Shown: one piece after another, positions 1 to 13,939 of the stretch
Position numbering within the stretch: the stretch's first letter is position 1
Layout of the letters: each line of letters opens with the position of its first letter
Source of the DNA: Gemmatimonadota bacterium
GTDB taxonomy: Bacteria; Gemmatimonadota; Gemmatimonadetes; Gemmatimonadales; GWC2-71-9
Assembly (NCBI GenBank): GCA_036679605.1
Contig: JAZDCZ010000337.1
Coordinates: 1 to 13,939 of the forward strand
DNA: 13,939 nucleotides
Direction: 5' to 3'
The notes under the pieces: generated by a model
Database searches by the model: none
Told to the model about the DNA's origin: nothing
The model's input: only the letters and a program-made list of their open reading frames with translations
Program-made: the position numbers and the translations under genes

Positions 1-397
1 GGACGACGACGAAGGTCGTAACAATGAGTACGCGACCGGACCACCGATGGAACTGAATGTGGCGGCTTCGGATCCGCCGAGAGAACTGGAACGGTGCTAG
101 GGTGAGAAGAATGCAGCCGGGCAGAACGTGCAGCAGGGTGAGGAGTGGGTGAGCGCCAAACCGGCCATCGAACCGCCGCAATTCCTCTCGCCGCTCCGCC
201 CAAAAGGGGTTGTTTCGCTGCAGCGCGGAGAGCAGCTGCTGGCGGAAGGGCTCCAACTGAGTGCCCCAATCGTCAAGGAAGACGGCTCTGGCTATCGCCG
301 TTGCCACACCGATTAGCACGAGGATAACGACGCCGCACCAAAGGGCACGACGTAGCCAAAGCAGCGTCAGGTTGGGAGCCAGGTCTACCGTCTGCAT
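1..397 (-). CDS. DUF2306-like integral membrane protein, 5' part; runs off the left edge of the window
   Basis: Not in the ORF track because it has no stop in the window. Manual translation from ATG at 397 is open to position 1: MQTVDLAPNLTLLWLRRALWCGVVILVLIGVATAIARAVF...HPLLTLLHVLPGCILLTLAPFQFSRRIRSRHIQFHRWSGRVLIV. The hydrophobic helices and the H...FQF...R...HRWxGR pattern match DUF2306 proteins from memory. Confidence 0.75.
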   Translation of the reverse strand, partial: MQTVDLAPNLTLLWLRRALWCGVVILVLIGVATAIARAVFLDDWGTQLEPFRQQLLSALQRNNPFWAERREELRRFDGRFGAHPLLTLLHVLPGCILLTLAPFQFSRRIRSRHIQFHRWSGRVLIVTTFVVV

Positions 398-471
398 AGC
401 ACCTGCGCCGACTCGCAACCTCGATAACGGTCAGCAAGGGCAGTCGAGAGCCGGGACGTGATCTCGGTCAT
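385..471 (-). pseudogene. Remnant of a Ser/Thr protein kinase 5' end; 28-aa mini-ORF MTEITSRLSTALADRYRGCESAQVLCRR*
   Basis: ATG at 471, TAG at 387-385. MTEITSRLSTALADRYR resembles the N-terminus of Hanks-type kinases (..LADRYRIERELGxGGMATVYLA). A shifted frame continues GAGAMQTVDLA. Confidence 0.65.
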
Positions 472-507
472 GGGGCTAAGATGCAGTGCCGCAGCTCAGG
501 TGGCCAG
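437..507 (-). repeat. 71-bp repeat, copy 1
   Basis: Manual ungapped alignment: 68/71 identical to copy 2 and 64/71 to copy 3. A 31-bp core atctcggtcatggggctaagatgcagtgccg (461-491) is invariant in all three copies. Confidence 0.97.
478..506 (-). promoter_or_regulatory. Putative sigma70-type promoter for a leaderless mRNA (TGGCCA-N17-CATCTT-N6-ATG); same arrangement at 966-994 and 2022-2050
   Basis: Minus strand reads TGGCCA cctgagctgcggcactg CATCTT agcccc ATG. Both hexamers are invariant in all three copies, while the upstream mismatches fall in the spacer. There is no Shine-Dalgarno before the ATG. Match to consensus is only 4/6 and 3/6. Confidence 0.45.
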
Positions 508-540
508 TACCAGGGTCAGACGATACCCACTTCACCCGGC

Positions 541-878
541 TCACCGTTTTACGGCAATGCCCTGCACCTCGAACCGGGCTTCGAAAAGCAACGTACCGGC
601 ACCGACAAAGGCCCTCGCTGGAAACTCTCTCGTGAAATACGTGCGATAAACCGCATTGAACGCAGCGTAGTATGCAACGTCGGAGCAAAACACCTGCACC
701 GACACGAGGTCGTCCATCGTCAGCCCTATAGTTCCAGACAGATACAGCGTGTTGCCCACCAGCACCGCGCCGCTAAATGGCAGGGCGGTCGAATCGGTGG
801 CGGACCGTGCGTTGATGTAGCGTCGTACCTCCTGCGCAACATGACCGAAACGAACGCTGCAAATGTTTGGCACCTCAT
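541..878 (-). pseudogene. RidA/YjgF/UK114 (Rid) family gene with an internal deletion and a 5' frameshift
   Basis: Rid motifs PFSGAVLVGNTLYLSGTIG and FNAVYRTYF..FPARAFVG..LLFEARFEVQGIAV are present. The ~30-aa segment normally between ..SGxIGL and GLTMDD is missing. The ATG at 878 with a strong SD (AAGGAGGT) gives MRCQTFAAFVSVML but is out of frame with the Rid domain (ORF 541-873). Confidence 0.75.
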
Positions 879-905
879 AACTCGTACCTCCTTAGTTGGG
901 AAGAT

Positions 906-959
906 TCAAACCTGCTGCTGCTCGAGGGCGGTCGAGAGCCGGGACGTGATCTCGGTCAT
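906..959 (-). other. Repeat-encoded mini-ORF MTEITSRLSTALEQQQV* (17 aa)
   Basis: ATG at 959, TGA at 908-906, upstream of the RidA SD. Whether it is translated is unknown. Confidence 0.45.
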
Positions 960-995
960 GGGGCTAAGATGCAGTGCCGAAGCGCAGGTGGCCAG
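925..995 (-). repeat. 71-bp repeat, copy 2
   Basis: 68/71 identical to copy 1 and 65/71 to copy 3. Lies between the FAH stop codon and the RidA start. Confidence 0.97.
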
Positions 996-1029
996 CGATC
1001 AACCTGGAGTCTTCGCAAGGGATGCGGCT

Positions 1030-1878
1030 CTAGTGCCGCCGGTCTCCCGCGGCAACGACTGTGTTTCGCAAGACCCCTACACCCTCGACCTCGACTTCCA
1101 CCACGTCTCCCGGTTTCATGGCTGCCGTTGTACCCGGAGTACCCGTGAAGATGACGTCCCCGGGCATCAACGTGACATACCGGCTCACGTAGCTCACAAT
1201 CTCGTCTACGTCAAAAATCAAATCGGCGCTGCGCTCTGATTGTCGCAGTTCACCGTTGAGTCGGGTCTGGACGAGCAGGTTGTTGTAATCCAGCCCCGTG
1301 GCGACGGTGGGCCCGAGCGGGCCGAAAGTATCGGACGCTTTGGCCCGAAGCCACTGGAGATCCGCACGCTGCCAGTCGCGCTCGCTCACGTCGTTACCGG
1401 CCGTGACACCGAAGATGTACTCGTGCGCGTCGACGGCCGAGACGTTGCTCGCTTGCTTGCCGATTACCACGACGAGTTCTCCTTCGTAATGCAGGTTCTC
1501 GGCGTCGGGCGGCATTACGATGTGCGCCTCATGTCCCACGATCGAGGTCGGGTATTTCGCGAACAGCCCCGGGTATTCCGCCGGAGGTCTGCTACCAAGG
1601 TGGCTGCGGTAATTGAGGCCGACCGCAATCACTTTCGACGGCTCGACTGGTGCAAGCAATCGCACGGTGGAAAGCGGCATCGTGCGGCCGGTACGGCGCG
1701 GTGACTCGAACAGGCCCCCCTGCAACTCCACGATGATCTCGCCCTCGAGAATACCGTACGACACGCGGCCTTCGAGCGCGTACCGAACGTAGCGAGTGAC
1801 TTGGTCTTGAGCAGCGGCCGTATGCGCTAGCACAGCGACGGCCACCACGCTCAGAACCCCTGAGGCGGTGTTGCGCAT
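1030..1878 (-). CDS. Fumarylacetoacetate (FAH) hydrolase family protein with a predicted Sec signal peptide
   Basis: FAH motifs KVIAVGLNYRSH, HYEGELVVVIGK, GNDVSERDWQ, KASDTFGPLGP and PGDVIFTGTPG. Likely start is ATG 1878 after GGAGGA. The N-terminus MRNTASGVLSVVAVAVLAHTAAA|Q looks like a signal peptide. Confidence 0.93.
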   Translation of the reverse strand: MRNTASGVLSVVAVAVLAHTAAAQDQVTRYVRYALEGRVSYGILEGEIIVELQGGLFESPRRTGRTMPLSTVRLLAPVEPSKVIAVGLNYRSHLGSRPPAEYPGLFAKYPTSIVGHEAHIVMPPDAENLHYEGELVVVIGKQASNVSAVDAHEYIFGVTAGNDVSERDWQRADLQWLRAKASDTFGPLGPTVATGLDYNNLLVQTRLNGELRQSERSADLIFDVDEIVSYVSRYVTLMPGDVIFTGTPGTTAAMKPGDVVEVEVEGVGVLRNTVVAAGDRRH

Positions 1879-1931
1879 GGAGTCCTCCAATAGTGCGGGA
1901 TGTCAGGTGTATCTCTTTATCCCAGCGCGGC

Positions 1932-2015
1932 TCAACCTAGCACGTGGAATCGCCGCGTGAACTTCACGATGAAACCTGCGAGGGCGGTCGAGAGGTCGGA
2001 CGTAATCTCGGTCAT
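1932..2015 (-). other. Repeat-encoded mini-ORF MTEITSDLSTALAGFIVKFTRRFHVLG* (27 aa)
   Basis: ATG at 2015, TGA at 1934-1932, upstream of the FAH gene. Whether it is translated is unknown. Confidence 0.45.
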
Positions 2016-2051
2016 GGGGCTAAGATGCAGTGCCGAAGCTCATGTGGCCAG
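1981..2051 (-). repeat. 71-bp repeat, copy 3 (most diverged)
   Basis: 64/71 identical to copy 1 and 65/71 to copy 2. Shares 3 extra bases (tac) with copy 1 on the right and 2 (cg) with copy 2 on the left. Confidence 0.97.
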
Positions 2052-2305
2052 TACTGTTTGGACGGGCGAACTAACTCTAAGTGATTATGGGAATTTGGTT
2101 GCCCGTACCCACAACCTGATTACGTTGCAATCCCGCGGGTGACGTGTAAGATATGGACATATGTTGGTCAGTCCATTTACGAGTTAGACCGCGACCTCGC
2201 ATGACCGAGTAAGCCCCGCATATTGTGGTAGACTGGTCCGGTCGTTTACAAGTGAGACGGCACGGATGGGGGCGGTTCAGTGTTCTTGATGAAGGAGGAC
2301 AGGCA

Positions 2306-2788
2306 ATGAAAGAGAGATCACCACTGCAATCCACAACCTGCATCGTCTCGGGAGTCATGCTCTTGCTGGCTGGGTGTTCCTCGCAGGAAAGGGGAAACCT
2401 GGAGGCCGATATTGCTGCGGTCAACGACATCTGGAACCAGTACTCTTCCAGCCTTAACTCAGGCGATCTAGATCGCTGGATGTCCCTATGGACCGAAGGC
2501 GGGGTACAGATGCCGCCAGGTGAGCCTCCGGTTATCGGCAAGGATCAGATACGGGCAAGAAACAAAGGTGTACTGGATCAGTTCACCTTCAACATCCGAA
2601 TCACCAACGAGGAGGTCGGGGCGGCTCGTGACTGGGCGTTCGCTCGGGGTACTTACAAAGCAACTTTGACTCCCAAGGAAGAAGGCGACGCAATCGATGT
2701 CGACGGCAAGTACATGACCATCTTTCAAAGGCAACCCGATGGGTCCTGGAAGATTCACCTCGATATCTTCAACTCCAACGTGCCTTAG
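2306..2788 (+). CDS. NTF2-like / SnoaL-like (DUF4440, YybH-type) lipoprotein
   Basis: SD AAGGAGG precedes ATG 2306. Lipobox LLAGC. Motifs MPPGEPPVIGKDQIR, DWAFARGTY and GKYMTIFQRQPDGSWKI are typical of ketosteroid-isomerase-like DUF4440 proteins. Confidence 0.85.
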   Translation: MKERSPLQSTTCIVSGVMLLLAGCSSQERGNLEADIAAVNDIWNQYSSSLNSGDLDRWMSLWTEGGVQMPPGEPPVIGKDQIRARNKGVLDQFTFNIRITNEEVGAARDWAFARGTYKATLTPKEEGDAIDVDGKYMTIFQRQPDGSWKIHLDIFNSNVP

Positions 2789-2930
2789 GCGGCGTCACAT
2801 GGCCAAGGTCATGCCGCGCAAACTCGGAAGCCGACGATGGTAAGTTTCTATATGTAGTCGGCAGTGGTACGATGAAGATCCCCCTCGACTCACTCCCCTT
2901 CGCCAACGAGGTCAGCGACAACTGACACCG

Positions 2931-3233
2931 CTATTTTCGGCGCACGACAAAGAATGCGAACAAGATCAACAGGGTGAGGAAGGCAGGGACAAACAACTCC
3001 CGGCTGTTTGAGCGATCTGAGAAATGATCGAACACGGCTGCAAGCGTGGCTACGCCCAGAAAGACTACCGCGCCGACAATCGCGCCGGTCGCGCCGCCGA
3101 CTGCAACCACCCAACGTTTCCCCTCCAACGGCGTGGTTCGCGAGCGCACAACGGCCGCGATGGCCCCTAGAACGCTGCCAATCCCGAAGCCGATCCAGAG
3201 CAGGTCAGTGTATGGACCAAACATTGTAGGCAA
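2931..3233 (-). CDS. Small hypothetical membrane protein with ~3 hydrophobic segments; start uncertain (TTG 3233 or ATG 3224)
   Basis: Three hydrophobic stretches and a basic C-terminus (VVRRK). Fills an otherwise empty gap. No family recognised. Confidence 0.6.
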   Translation of the reverse strand: MPTMFGPYTDLLWIGFGIGSVLGAIAAVVRSRTTPLEGKRWVVAVGGATGAIVGAVVFLGVATLAAVFDHFSDRSNSRELFVPAFLTLLILFAFFVVRRK

Positions 3234-6832: not shown

Positions 6833-8503
6833 CTACCACACCCTGCCATCCTGCGAAATACGGATAGTGCGTCCGCCTGGGCCGGCCAGCGACGCCTCGA
6901 ACAATTCCGACGTAGCTTCCACTGTGGCACCCAACGGTAGTCCATCCACTTCTAGTTGCGACAGATCATCTGTGTAGCGCCCATGTCTGTTGAAATAGGT
7001 CCGCTCGGCGTAGTAGACTCTCCTGAGTGTCCATTTGATAGCATCACTTCCATCGGGCACGAACTCCGCTGGTTTCCCCGGTGGAACACTTGAGAATTGG
7101 ACGATCCCCCACATTTCGGGATAGTGCATGTTGATGATTCCCTGTGGCGACCATACCCAGTTGTCCTCGGGCCGAGTGCGACCCTCTGGATTGTCCGACA
7201 GCCTCACGTACTTGCCCGCTTCTACTTTGGTTCGCCACTCGACTCGCGAAAAGTTGACGCGCCATTGATCCCCCGCTTCGGGCGGGGCCTTCTTGTTTGC
7301 TGCCTGTTTGAGGACGTCCCACGGCAAGGCGATCTCGATGCTCCAACCGCTATCTTTGTCCGTTGGGTCGTTCAGTGTGCCATCGACCGACACGGCAGTA
7401 CGCAGACCCTGGATATCCCATGAGTTGAGCGCAGGCCCACCGTCACGATACGGCTTCACCAGAAAAAGATCCCACTCGGTACCGAGTGCGTTCACCTCCA
7501 GCTCGTAGTACTCGTGCGTATCGCCATCGGGATCTATAAAGATCTCGAAGTCGTTGTCGTGGTAGATCACTGCGTCGCGTTGTCTAAGAGTGGCCCACAC
7601 AGCAGGCTCCTCCATATCAGCCGCAACATAGAAAAACTTATCGTCCCACAGCATCTTGGTGCGTGTACGAAACCGGGGAACTCGTCCAGCAGGCCCTTCG
7701 ATGTCCAAGAAGTCCTCGGTCCAGGGAACCTTGCGCCACGACGACTCGGTGATTTTTCCGTCGATCACGATCGGTGCGTCGGACCGGTGCGCCACGTAAT
7801 GCCTGGGCCGCCAGGCGATGGCGGGCTCGGGGAAACCCTCGACGATCACCTTGGCAGTTTCTATACGATCCAGCTCTGGGAATTCCCTATCGAGATAGGC
7901 GTTTCCGCCGGCCTTGACCTGGCCCTGCTTGCCGCCACGCATCCCTCCACCGGCATTCTCGTCATAGCCCGAATAGAATCGGTCCACTATCTCCATTCCT
8001 TCTACCACTCGGCCGAACGGCGCAAACCCCCCGGCATCCAGCCGAGAGTTATCGTCGTAGTTGATGTAGACCTGCGTGAGGCGCGTATCGGGCCCGGTCA
8101 TGGCGTAACTGACGTACCCACGAGTGTTGCTCTGCAGGACGGGATCGTCCGGTATCGTTCTGCCCTCCCACGCCTTTGTGATCGCGGGGTCTCCCGACAA
8201 GCCGAACTGAGCGATGAAACCGGCTCGAACGCGGGATATGCGCATGTCATCGTAGAAACCGTTCCGAACGAGGTTGTAGAATCGATCGGCGCCGTGGGGC
8301 GCCCAGTCGCGATGCACCTCGACCACGAAGTTTCCCTTGCTCGTCTCGAAATCAGCTCGGAATACCGGTGGTGCAGCCTCAGACCACACCGGGGCATCCG
8401 GGTCCAGCAGGGCTGCCCTGTTGCTGCCTCTCTCGGCGTTGCAGCTCACGAACAGAGCTAGTAGCGACCCTGCACATGCGACCGAACGGAGATTTCGACT
8501 CAT
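6833..8503 (-). CDS. Lipoprotein fusing a cyclophilin-type peptidyl-prolyl isomerase domain to a CBM9-like carbohydrate-binding domain
   Basis: SD GAGGTG before ATG 8503; lipobox-like LFVSC. The N-terminal half has cyclophilin motifs (FETSKGNFVVEV, WAPHGADRFYNLV, RVRAGFIAQFG, PFGRVVEGME). The C-terminal half has CBM9-like motifs (PIVIDGKI.E..W, DNDFEIFIDPDGD, YYELEVNALGT, WRVNFSRVEW, NWVWSPQG). Confidence 0.88.
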   Translation of the reverse strand: MSRNLRSVACAGSLLALFVSCNAERGSNRAALLDPDAPVWSEAAPPVFRADFETSKGNFVVEVHRDWAPHGADRFYNLVRNGFYDDMRISRVRAGFIAQFGLSGDPAITKAWEGRTIPDDPVLQSNTRGYVSYAMTGPDTRLTQVYINYDDNSRLDAGGFAPFGRVVEGMEIVDRFYSGYDENAGGGMRGGKQGQVKAGGNAYLDREFPELDRIETAKVIVEGFPEPAIAWRPRHYVAHRSDAPIVIDGKITESSWRKVPWTEDFLDIEGPAGRVPRFRTRTKMLWDDKFFYVAADMEEPAVWATLRQRDAVIYHDNDFEIFIDPDGDTHEYYELEVNALGTEWDLFLVKPYRDGGPALNSWDIQGLRTAVSVDGTLNDPTDKDSGWSIEIALPWDVLKQAANKKAPPEAGDQWRVNFSRVEWRTKVEAGKYVRLSDNPEGRTRPEDNWVWSPQGIINMHYPEMWGIVQFSSVPPGKPAEFVPDGSDAIKWTLRRVYYAERTYFNRHGRYTDDLSQLEVDGLPLGATVEATSELFEASLAGPGGRTIRISQDGRVW

Positions 8504-12071: not shown

Positions 12072-13939
12072 GTGAACCACGACATCTGCCTAGGAAATAA
12101 CTCGATTACGCGACGCGACTTCATGGCGCGAGCTGCGGCCGCTGGAGGGGCTGTTGGACTGCTTCCCGTCATAGCCGCGTCCTGCCAACCGCATCGCAAA
12201 CAGCTGTTCGATGCCGGAGAATCCAATGTCCGAGTGGACGGCCGCATCATATCGATCGGAAACAATGCGATCGCGGCGAAGTGGTCTGTGTCCGAAGACA
12301 AGCTGCGGACGTTGGACGTGGTCGATCTCCTCACAAACAATACCATTTCACTGACACCCAACACCTTCGTGCTGAATCTGGCAGATGGAGCCACTATCAA
12401 TTCGTCCGCCATGCGGCTGGCGCGAGGTCCACGCGTGGAGCGGGTGACGGGGAACCCGTCCGCCTCACGGTACGCCGATCGCATGGACGGCCAGGTCGTA
12501 ACTCTCGAACTCGCAGACGACGACAGTGGAGTCGCCGTTACCTGGCGAGGCATTCTCAGAAACGGTGCTGCCTACATACGACAGGAACTCACACTCGCAG
12601 CGACAGGACGAGACGTACCGCTCAGCAACATCACGCTTGTGGACTCGGACATTCCCGAGGCCAATGTCGTGGGAACAGTGCGGGGATCACCGATTGTCGC
12701 CGGCAACATGTTTGTGGGATTCGAGCACCCCCTCTCCGAGAGCAGCGTGGAGAACGGACGGACGCGGTGCAGTTTGACTCGGGAATTGCCGCTCAGATCG
12801 GGTGCTGCTCTGACCTACTCGTCCGTTATCGGAGTCACTCCAGCCGGCCAGCTACGACGCGGCTTCCTCAACTACGTCGAGCGAGAGAGGGCCCATCCGT
12901 ATCGCCCATTCCTGCACTACAACTCGTGGTACGACCTCGGTTACTTCAGCCCGTTCGACGAGGCAGGCGCTCTCGCGGTGATCGAAGCCTACGGTACCGA
13001 ACTTCACGACAAGCGCGGGGTCGTGCTCGATTCCTTCTTGTTCGACGACGGATGGGACGATCATACCACGTTGTGGAAGTTCAACTCCGGATTCCCCAAC
13101 GGCTTCGCTCCGCTGCGCGACGCCACTGCCCGTTACGGGGCTGCACCTGGAGTATGGATGTCCCCGTGGGGTGGATACGGCGAACCCCGTCGCCAGCGAT
13201 TGGAGAATGGGCGCGCACAGGGCTTCGAGACCAACGAACGGGGCTTTGCCCTATCCGGCCCCAAGTACTACGAGCGCTTCGAAGAGACTTGCCTTGAGAT
13301 GATCCGGAACTATGGTGTGGGCCAGTTCAAGTTCGATGGCACTGGTAACGCTGCAAGCGCCATTCCCGGTAGTCAGTTCGACAGTGATTTCGACGCCGCG
13401 ATCCATCTGATCGAGAGACTTCGCAGCGAAAAGCAGGATCTCTACATCAACCTCACTACCGGCACCTACCCTTCGCCATTCTGGCTCAAGTATGCCGACT
13501 CCACCTGGCGCGGCGGAAACGATCACAATTTCACTGGAGTCGGATCGGACAGGCAACAGTGGATCACGTACCGTGATGCGGCAACCTATCGTGGTGTCGT
13601 GCAACGCGGTCCGCTTTACCCGTTGAACGCTCTCATGTTGCACGGACTCATCTACGCCAAGCATGCGAGGAAACTGGACACCGATCCGGAAAACGACTTC
13701 GACGACGAAATCCGCGCATACTTTGGCAGCGGCACCCAACTCCAGGAGATGTATGTTACGCCGTCTCTCTTGACGCAGGACAATTGGGATACATTGGCCG
13801 AGTCGGCCAACTGGGCGCGACGCAACGCCGACATCTTGGTCGACACCCACTGGGTGGGCGGTGACCCGGAAGAGCTGGAGGTGTACGGCAGAGCCTCGTG
13901 GAACGATGATGCAGGCATCCTCGTTCTACGGAATCCCAA
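12072..13939 (+). CDS. Tat-exported clan GH-D (GH36/GH27-like) glycosidase-like protein of the family often annotated 'enterotoxin' (Aeromonas Ast-like); runs off the right edge
   Basis: Not in the ORF track because it has no stop in the window. Manual translation from GTG 12072 is open to the end: MNHDICLGNNSITRRDFMARAAAAGGAVGLLPVIAASC..., with FLHYNSWYDLG, FLFDDGWDD, FPNGF, GVWMSPWGGY, QFKFDG and DSTWRGG. Confidence 0.8.
   Translation, partial: MNHDICLGNNSITRRDFMARAAAAGGAVGLLPVIAASCQPHRKQLFDAGESNVRVDGRIISIGNNAIAAKWSVSEDKLRTLDVVDLLTNNTISLTPNTFVLNLADGATINSSAMRLARGPRVERVTGNPSASRYADRMDGQVVTLELADDDSGVAVTWRGILRNGAAYIRQELTLAATGRDVPLSNITLVDSDIPEANVVGTVRGSPIVAGNMFVGFEHPLSESSVENGRTRCSLTRELPLRSGAALTYSSVIGVTPAGQLRRGFLNYVERERAHPYRPFLHYNSWYDLGYFSPFDEAGALAVIEAYGTELHDKRGVVLDSFLFDDGWDDHTTLWKFNSGFPNGFAPLRDATARYGAAPGVWMSPWGGYGEPRRQRLENGRAQGFETNERGFALSGPKYYERFEETCLEMIRNYGVGQFKFDGTGNAASAIPGSQFDSDFDAAIHLIERLRSEKQDLYINLTTGTYPSPFWLKYADSTWRGGNDHNFTGVGSDRQQWITYRDAATYRGVVQRGPLYPLNALMLHGLIYAKHARKLDTDPENDFDDEIRAYFGSGTQLQEMYVTPSLLTQDNWDTLAESANWARRNADILVDTHWVGGDPEELEVYGRASWNDDAGILVLRNP

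Follow-up and report, generated by a model that had tools for sequence, protein, structure and literature searches.

The window considered here, a stretch of 13,939 nt, is the entire contig JAZDCZ010000337.1 (C265) of the metagenome-assembled genome (MAG) GCA_036679605.1 of a Gemmatimonadota bacterium (hereafter G000; 6.7 Mb in 434 contigs, completeness 96.5%, contamination 6.3%), and it holds, close to its left end, three copies of a 71-nt repeat that each stand at the head of an unrelated gene on the minus strand. By its sequence, the repeat is a predicted core promoter joined to the first 12-15 codons (37-44 nt) of an expanded Hanks-type kinase subfamily. All three of the cassettes that it delimits have a second copy with different neighbours, the switch lying within the repeat, and this comparison of contigs indicates that the cassettes are mobile at the repeat. 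They are probably made by deletion of a kinase body and moved by homologous recombination at the promoter-start sequence that kinase genes have in common.

The three repeat copies are ungapped and in one orientation (434-510, 922-998 and 1978-2054, spaced by 488 and 1056 nt), and their 71-nt cores are identical to each other at 68/71, 64/71 and 65/71 positions; the 19 other direct-repeat families listed for the window (of 30 detected) reach at most 30 nt and 85% identity, which places this repeat far above chance. The minus-strand translations of the copies, MTEITSRLSTAL, MTEITSRLSTAL and MTEITSDLSTAL, belong to frames that close after 28, 17 and 27 codons. Copy 3 (1978-2054) carries a predicted -35 box TGGCCA (2050-2045), a -10 box CATCTT (2027-2022), an ATG at 2015 and a kinase stub of ~38 nt, and is followed by the first cargo, an FAH-family hydrolase (1030-1878; PF01557 and PF10370) with its own Shine-Dalgarno sequence and ATG. 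Copy 2 (922-998; boxes at 994-989 and 971-966, ATG 959, stub ~37 nt) precedes a RidA/YjgF-family gene (541-878; Ribonuc_L-PSP) that has decayed, a 28-nt deletion near its start having shifted the frame after the ATG at 878, with 30 further residues lost internally. Copy 1, including its stub of ~44 nt (MTEITSRLSTALADRY), spans 428-510 (boxes at 506-501 and 483-478, ATG 471) and heads the 5' part of a DUF2306 membrane-protein gene (1-397) that is cut by the contig end and whose Pfam match scores 29.9 bits, below the 31.6 cut-off. Two of the cores begin 34 nt past the FAH stop codon (1030) and 33 nt past the RidA stop codon (541). A first-pass annotation of this DNA had given the copies, their spacing, identities, encoded starts and stop distances in the same terms, and all of these were reproduced on re-measurement; its further statement that one unrelated minus-strand gene follows each copy agrees with the Pfam matches to FAA_hydrolase, Ribonuc_L-PSP and DUF2306, with the amendment that RidA is a decayed copy.

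The identity of the repeat emerges from its distribution in the genome. BLAST searches of G000 yielded 56 loci at E<=1 and 49 sites at E<=0.05; the latter, close copies lie on 15 of the 434 contigs, in a single orientation on 14 of these 15, and 19 of them continue into full or contig-cut kinases of 750-940 aa. Pkinase (PF00069) was found in all three of the full copies scanned, and PD40 repeats in two of the three. The first-pass annotation had proposed that the repeat derives from the 5' end of a kinase gene, promoter and initial codons included, and this is thereby confirmed. A census of kinase starts, performed as a profile search of the contigs, recovered 68 full starts together with 34 candidate stubs, on 17 contigs (one of the candidates being cut by a contig end and another being a long frameshifted gene), in a genome that carries 114 Pkinase matches. 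Matches to the kinase N-terminus number 13-117 per genome in all 31 genomes of the order searched, where the starts often form tandem, co-oriented rows near tRNA genes, and in one kinase subfamily of G000 the promoter-start sequences are near-identical. The 77-nt repeat matched 3 of 40 relatives, and exact-pattern scans retrieved only three metagenome loci and one genome locus, so that this repeat type is lineage-restricted.

The part of the repeat that lies ahead of the ATG has the layout TGGCCA-17 nt-CATCTT, with 6 nt to the start codon. Of the 102 kinase-gene starts and stubs, 42 carry the corresponding motif, T(C/G/A/T)GCNN - 17 nt - YAYMYT at 6-10 nt before the ATG, with spacers that fall into 23 unrelated families; among 4132 other genes only 9 have it. 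None of the 102 sites carries it with spacers of 13-16, 18-20 or 22 nt; a 21-nt spacer occurs at 11 sites, which we read as a second register of the copies of promoter type A. Fixed spacing with free spacer sequence is the signature of a -35/-10 promoter, and the repeat is thus predicted to contain one of sigma-70 type. Since the motif is so close to the ATG, the transcript is likely to be leaderless, a class of mRNA defined in PMC10783764, the relevant portions of which are silent on leaderless transcripts in Gemmatimonadota. In a genome-wide test for leaderless starts, 1695 non-kinase genes showed no more than a slight peak at -12. Both codon-7 variants, AAG and CGG, are found with promoter type A and likewise with type C.

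Evidence for movement is provided by the second copies of the window cassettes. The FAH cassette recurs on C88 (91.9% identical) with the same stub joint, other DNA upstream and a Sel1 gene downstream, while the congener G001 has a 1129-nt repeat-to-repeat FAH unit, 92% identical, between tRNA-Pro and a kinase; the genes used to compare G000 and G001 are 78% (tig-clpP-clpX) and 84% (one shared kinase locus) identical. The RidA copy on C301 stands behind a type-B promoter, its identity to the window beginning at the -10 box; downstream of it the same promoter as in the window opens a full kinase of 891 aa where the window has DUF2306. The DUF2306 copy on C87 is 96.9% identical and has other DNA upstream of the -35 box. 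The 3' ends of DUF2306, on C169 and C301, run into a third promoter type and a further kinase stub, and diverge right after its ATG. The contig end inside DUF2306 is thus a two-copy repeat, with C87 as the other 5' copy and C169 and C301 as the two 3' ends; because C169 carries eno and C301 carries rho (the one close rho), the two copies sit at different loci. To the left of the window the assembly graph accordingly branches inside DUF2306 into two routes. The C169 route closes the row with a fourth stub, an Ig-like gene on the opposite strand, the 3' remnant of a kinase and tRNA-Met; the C301 route leads from the window to an intact kinase.

Duplicate-copy homology starts or stops inside the repeat at five of the six cassette ends compared, and marker bases place the switch at about -2 to +18 of the ATG for the RidA, DUF2306 and FAH-next-start joints. 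A fourth cassette, 87% identical between C419 and C212, has a stub joint common to both loci. The 30-nt linkers after the FAH and RidA stop codons have no match other than the C301 RidA copy. In a public assembly of the same species (X1), the sequence is identical to the window over 2013-3000, and the DUF2306 contig combines the stub of the window with the first seven substitutions of C87 behind a promoter (by the loose end listed at 473) that is absent from G000 and G001; gaps in X1 coverage at 90% likeness (window 855-904 and 1005-1029) carry no weight either way. An X1 joint of 1976 to 925 was considered as a possible circle and rejected, as it is compatible with another copy of FAH that has a repeat of its own upstream. 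Gene order therefore differs among loci and relatives, with the switches at the repeat (window cassettes, C88, C87, C301, G001 and X1), as expected from the cassette-like array first described for the window.

A family-wide search for relatives of the cassettes, covering 401 genomes of which 55 had a match, sheds light on their origin. In G175 an intact RidA lies directly behind an 871-aa kinase, and the DNA upstream of it matches G000 from the exact base where the G000 stub ends; in G298, intact RidA lies directly behind a 750-aa kinase. RidA follows a kinase 3' remnant in G212 and a short remnant-like stretch in G188, and the remaining RidA loci fetched have no adjoining kinase. Since two other genera thus have an intact RidA behind a complete kinase, the cassette in the window is most simply read as promoter-kinase-RidA minus the kinase body, rather than as capture at a site. 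FAH homologs (71-76% identical) present a different picture, in that 18 of 18 loci inspected in other genomes are without a kinase start within ~1.5 kb, a 12-codon stub being near the detection limit; FAH was therefore probably recruited within this genus. Across four genomes from two other genera the RidA pieces keep 86-94% identity, where core genes have 71-73%, and for FAH and RidA alike the identity of the cassettes between species exceeds that of core genes. Furthermore, G298, which belongs to another genus and is assembled in 10 contigs, has its own homogenised promoter-start before kinases and stubs alike, and a 480-nt cassette framed by kinase ends is 94% identical between G298 and C154 of G000.

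Stubs of this kind are numerous. Short orphan fragments of the kinase family in G000 comprise 27 5' ends, 13 3' ends and 2 internal pieces (3 long fragments and 2 at contig ends being left out of the count). An ABC-permease control family of 37 members gave no 5' ends, one 3' end and three internal fragments; of two small control families, an amidohydrolase (6 members) had no fragments and a beta-lactamase-like family (5 members) had one 5' fragment. An SBP5 control was void, its seed being itself a stub fusion, and no seed was found for a SusC control. The excess of 5'-end stubs is specific to the kinase family. In 24 of 33 cases a stub lies within 6 kb of another kinase start or stub site; 53 of 59 neighbouring pairs of such sites (within 10 kb) are co-oriented, and the sites often adjoin tRNA genes and tRNA fragments. 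The cargo, surveyed in 94 proteins selected out of 213 called plus a few others, includes hydrolases, transporters, binding proteins, TPR and Sel1 proteins and toxin-antitoxin genes, with four in-frame fusions to the stub; gene calls at loci outside the window come from our own simple caller and are approximate. The joints between stub and cargo are spread from +20 to +146 nt, and there is therefore no single capture point. Stubs are also present in G001, G014, G027, G188, G212 and G298, and occur in 4-contig and 10-contig assemblies.

The proposed mechanism starts from the many kinase starts per genome, in tandem, co-oriented rows, that were observed throughout the order, and from the near-identity of promoter-starts in one G000 subfamily. 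Deletion of a kinase body at variable points, which is traced for RidA, would then bring a downstream gene directly behind the kinase promoter, in some cases fused in frame to the stub and in others with a kinase 3' remnant left behind. The resulting cassette would be the DNA between two co-oriented starts, namely stub tail, gene and next promoter. Crossover within the 36-75 nt of shared core would duplicate or relocate such a cassette to another kinase start; the outcome of this step is seen in the second copies, and its route is probably of RecA type, through unequal exchange, through circles or with DNA that enters the cell, also between species and genera. Shared homology of 36-75 nt is long enough for homologous recombination to operate at a low rate. 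Finally, the predicted promoter would drive the cargo from a leaderless transcript.

Homologous recombination is favoured because no attC site, fold or linked recombinase was found. On neither strand around the three copies is there an attC core pair (RYYYAAC...GTTRRRY), in agreement with the array without attC sites described in the first-pass annotation; single-strand folds of the copies are no better than those of shuffled sequences (z-scores +0.85 to +1.69), no terminator-like site occurs in window 1-2400, and the repeat has no Rfam match. The two integron integrase (IntI) genes of G000 (C73 382-1425 and C407 8622-9605; 462 and 456 bits, cut-off 265) lie on contigs that hold no kinase start or stub, and G001, which has the FAH cassette, has no IntI above the cut-off. 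The search for a nearby integrase, recombinase or reverse transcriptase (RT), suggested at the outset, found none linked to the window array, and beside the other arrays there is no integrase, IntI or RT, the single exception being a tRNA-Pro island with an integrase that lies 7 kb away from the array on C426. An integron is ruled out by the lack of attC, fold and linked IntI or attI and by cassette ends as imprecise as those given above. The idea of an integron-like capture site, put forward for the window, is likewise not supported, in view of the scattered joints, the lack of a linked recombinase and the origin of RidA by kinase-body loss. A dispersed repeat of the REP (repetitive extragenic palindromic) or MITE (miniature inverted-repeat transposable element) type was also ruled out: its copies would be scattered without consistent orientation, and those of G000 are clustered and co-oriented (confined to 15 contigs, all but one of which have a single orientation), with no fold and no Rfam match. 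ComEC is present in G000 and G001, and also in 10 of 14 control genomes, and is therefore no evidence of competence.

A number of observations weigh against deletion followed by homologous recombination, or against parts of it. Some ~20 type-A copies meet mostly unrelated upstream DNA, mostly at 0-10 nt from the -35 box, which is the left edge of the repeat; so sharp an edge exceeds what random deletion would give and is the least explained fact of all. It could result from conversion tracts that are anchored in the kinase start and end at a CTNGC common to other kinase promoters. The sixth cassette end, the right end of FAH on C88, diverges ~20 nt past the stop codon, outside the repeat. The next gene is on the stub strand in 26 of 32 scorable cases (81%), close to the background of 75%, and use of the promoter by the cargo is thus a prediction only. 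Both G000 copies of RidA are broken, the C301 copy having the same internal gap as the window and being frameshifted there, so that selection on cargo is not general. In G017 all 13 matches of one start pattern are kinase starts, those inspected being full or frameshifted kinases, which shows that stubs are not universal. As for the promoter, its motif was defined on the very regions ahead of the kinases in which it was then counted, spacing specificity being the one independent test; a generic sigma-70 scan does not call it, and a check upstream of tRNA genes gave two loose matches only. Lastly, mobility is deduced from assembled contigs, among which no circle or excision joint was seen, in a genome that, at 6.3% contamination, is larger than most relatives, and some of the duplicates could stem from a second strain.

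A more far-reaching form of the proposal, which we regard as possible and put forward tentatively, is that of a selected, recombinase-free analogue of the integron in Gemmatimonadales: each lineage would homogenise the promoter-start of its large kinase family into a short standard joint, loss of kinase bodies would yield small cassettes carrying their own promoter, and these would circulate as circles or as incoming DNA, between the dozens of kinase starts of a genome and across genera.

It is rather unlikely that the stubs are passive scars of gutted kinases whose promoters were reused, the duplicates having arisen by ordinary block duplication or transfer with no role of the repeat in movement. 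The variable stub ends fit such a course, as do RidA behind full kinases in other genera, its pseudogene state in G000, the 18 FAH loci without a kinase start, and the location of the arrays in tRNA-linked variable regions full of tRNA fragments. Passive scars do not lead one to expect that duplicate homology is bounded inside the repeat at five of six ends, that promoter and codon-7 markers reassort, or that a 1129-nt repeat-to-repeat unit is common to two species.

The participation of a dedicated, site-specific or site-preferring enzyme (a tyrosine recombinase, HUH or other) acting in trans at the promoter-start core is improbable. An enzyme of this sort would accommodate the clustering of mapped switches near the ATG and the abrupt left boundary that the repeat shows at its -35 box in many settings. 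Matches to tyrosine recombinases (35) and to RTs (12) occur in the genome besides the two integron integrases; moreover, the first 8-9 nt of the repeat equal the 3' end of tRNA-Phe, a fragment of which, with arm-like motifs in repeated form, adjoins three of the copies. It is opposed by the negative attC, fold and IntI results above, by the finding that only 6 of 34 stubs are on a contig with Phage_integrase or RVT_1 among the matches listed, the nearest being at 7 kb (the tRNA-Pro island of C426), and by the differences between genera in the homogenised promoter-start, as homology rather than a fixed site predicts.

An artefact of assembly or binning is very improbable. G000 is a short-read MAG with the contig number and contamination given above, its graph branches inside DUF2306, and no X1 contig among those listed spans a junction of the window. 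Misassembly at the repeats is nevertheless unlikely, because the longest exact matches of the window repeat regions elsewhere in the genome measure 38-63 nt, less than the 114 nt by which contigs overlap, and because the independent assembly of G001 reproduces the FAH cassette between two repeats with the same spacing; in addition, stubs occur in assemblies of few contigs. Least credible of all is an RNA-templated route, in which leaderless read-through transcripts that begin at a stub ATG would be copied into DNA by an RT and then recombine with the starts of other kinase genes: several switch points do fall at or just past the predicted start site and the genome has its 12 RT matches, but no RT is linked to the arrays, and cassettes hold the downstream promoter and, in some cases, opposite-strand genes.

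Several other features of these loci were recorded. Tandem kinases with stop/start overlaps (TTGA, ATGA, GTGA) and several different 3' ends are found at L007:2500-13400 (G000:C311), L022:1-8454 and L009:4327-4330, which suggests repeated selection for translational coupling. At L017:17004-17050 and L012:10603-10650 the last codons of DUF2306 overlap a type-C kinase promoter, the stop lying 13 nt ahead of the ATG of the next stub. Heptamer-like tandem runs (CAGACTC, GGACATT) directly precede some kinase starts (L046, G016:C201; G000:C214 at 49108, 51923, 67303 and 86194), and in G298 the run directly before kinase starts is GGCGGTAT. Just upstream of three type-A promoters (L003:13850-14180, G000:C214; L008:11100-11400 and 12300-12450; L009:7030-7300, G000:C419) are 3' halves of tRNA-Phe, together with one copy that is almost complete; an insert of ~50 nt interrupts their T-loop, and CAGTGTACA/CAGTGACAC motifs follow in repeated form. 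Fragments split in a similar way were recorded for tRNA-Lys, Asn, Pro, Met and Arg, and the contig of one Phe fragment has no tRNA-Phe gene. The 85-89 nt 'tRNA-Ala/Val' calls on C214, C93, C401, C154, C162, C88 and C91 (e.g. C214:86437-86525) are part of a ~250-nt repeated element near kinase starts. Some kinases are preceded by a GCCCGCCCTTCAGGGCGGG palindrome, which we take to resemble IS200/IS605 ends. Positions 49000-150000 of C343 hold ~24 tRNA calls in several clusters, including a second tRNA-Sec, and could be a tRNA array on a mobile element. In the window itself, a ~70-nt element upstream of copy 3 (2116-2194) with a TGGAC...GTCCA inverted repeat recurs at 85-87% on C87, C90 and C165 and is possibly the operator or promoter of a plus-strand SnoaL-like gene, and a cyclophilin-type peptidyl-prolyl isomerase fused to a CBM9-like domain (6833-8503) adjoins a GH38 alpha-mannosidase.

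No earlier description of this pattern was found in the open-licence literature, searched at the level of listings and the openings of abstracts. The closest parallel is found in the PeSLs (promoter early stem-loop elements) of the T4-type phages RB49 and phi1, repeated promoter elements before unrelated genes that serve as linkers for homologous recombination (PMC2839356; PMC4122927). As described in PMC2839356, these are sigma-70-like promoter repeats in variable regions, with insertion, excision and replacement of genes and no dedicated recombinase identified; the array described here shares with them a repeated predicted promoter before variable genes (the 42 of 102 sites) and breakpoints inside the element. 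It differs in that neither a terminator-like site nor a stable fold accompanies the repeat, in its host, a cellular chromosome, in its predicted leaderless start, in being known from contig comparison rather than from mini-circles joined at the element, and in a linker that is the start of a paralogous protein-coding family, including 12-49 codons. Integron arrays, in the features covered by PMC3053210, are likewise compact [site-gene]n rows of unrelated genes whose neighbours change at the site, and are set apart by their RYYYAAC...GTTRRRY cores, palindromic fold and linked IntI; units here have their own predicted promoter and imprecise joints. Orphan cdiA-CT/cdiI and rhs-CT modules are also headed by variable-length stubs of a full gene, with homology from motif to motif, and recombination at the conserved part is the mechanism proposed in PMC3150448; those orphans reload a C-terminal toxin onto the parent protein, whereas the stub here is a promoter and N-terminus, and most cargo is separate from and unrelated to kinase function. 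Putative mobile promoters, as surveyed in PMC3575422, are highly similar promoter regions ahead of unrelated genes, some across taxa; that survey excluded extension into paralogous coding sequence and offered no mechanism. The present array is a mechanistic case of such promoter reuse, in which the family of origin is known and the units that change place are entire gene cassettes.

The Discussion of PMC2839356 (2010) states that there was then no evidence of PeSL-type shuffling in cellular organisms, and the present array would extend promoter-linker shuffling from T4-type phages to a cellular chromosome. It shows how an enzyme-free cassette system could arise, an expanded gene family supplying both homology and promoter, and accounts for the many 'MTEITSKLSTAL' open frames of 10-50 aa and the odd fusions in these genomes. 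It also provides a first promoter model for a little-studied phylum, T(C/G)GCCN-17-YATCTT with a predicted leaderless start. If the tentative integron analogue were true, a signalling gene family would double as the gene-exchange scaffold of the chromosome.

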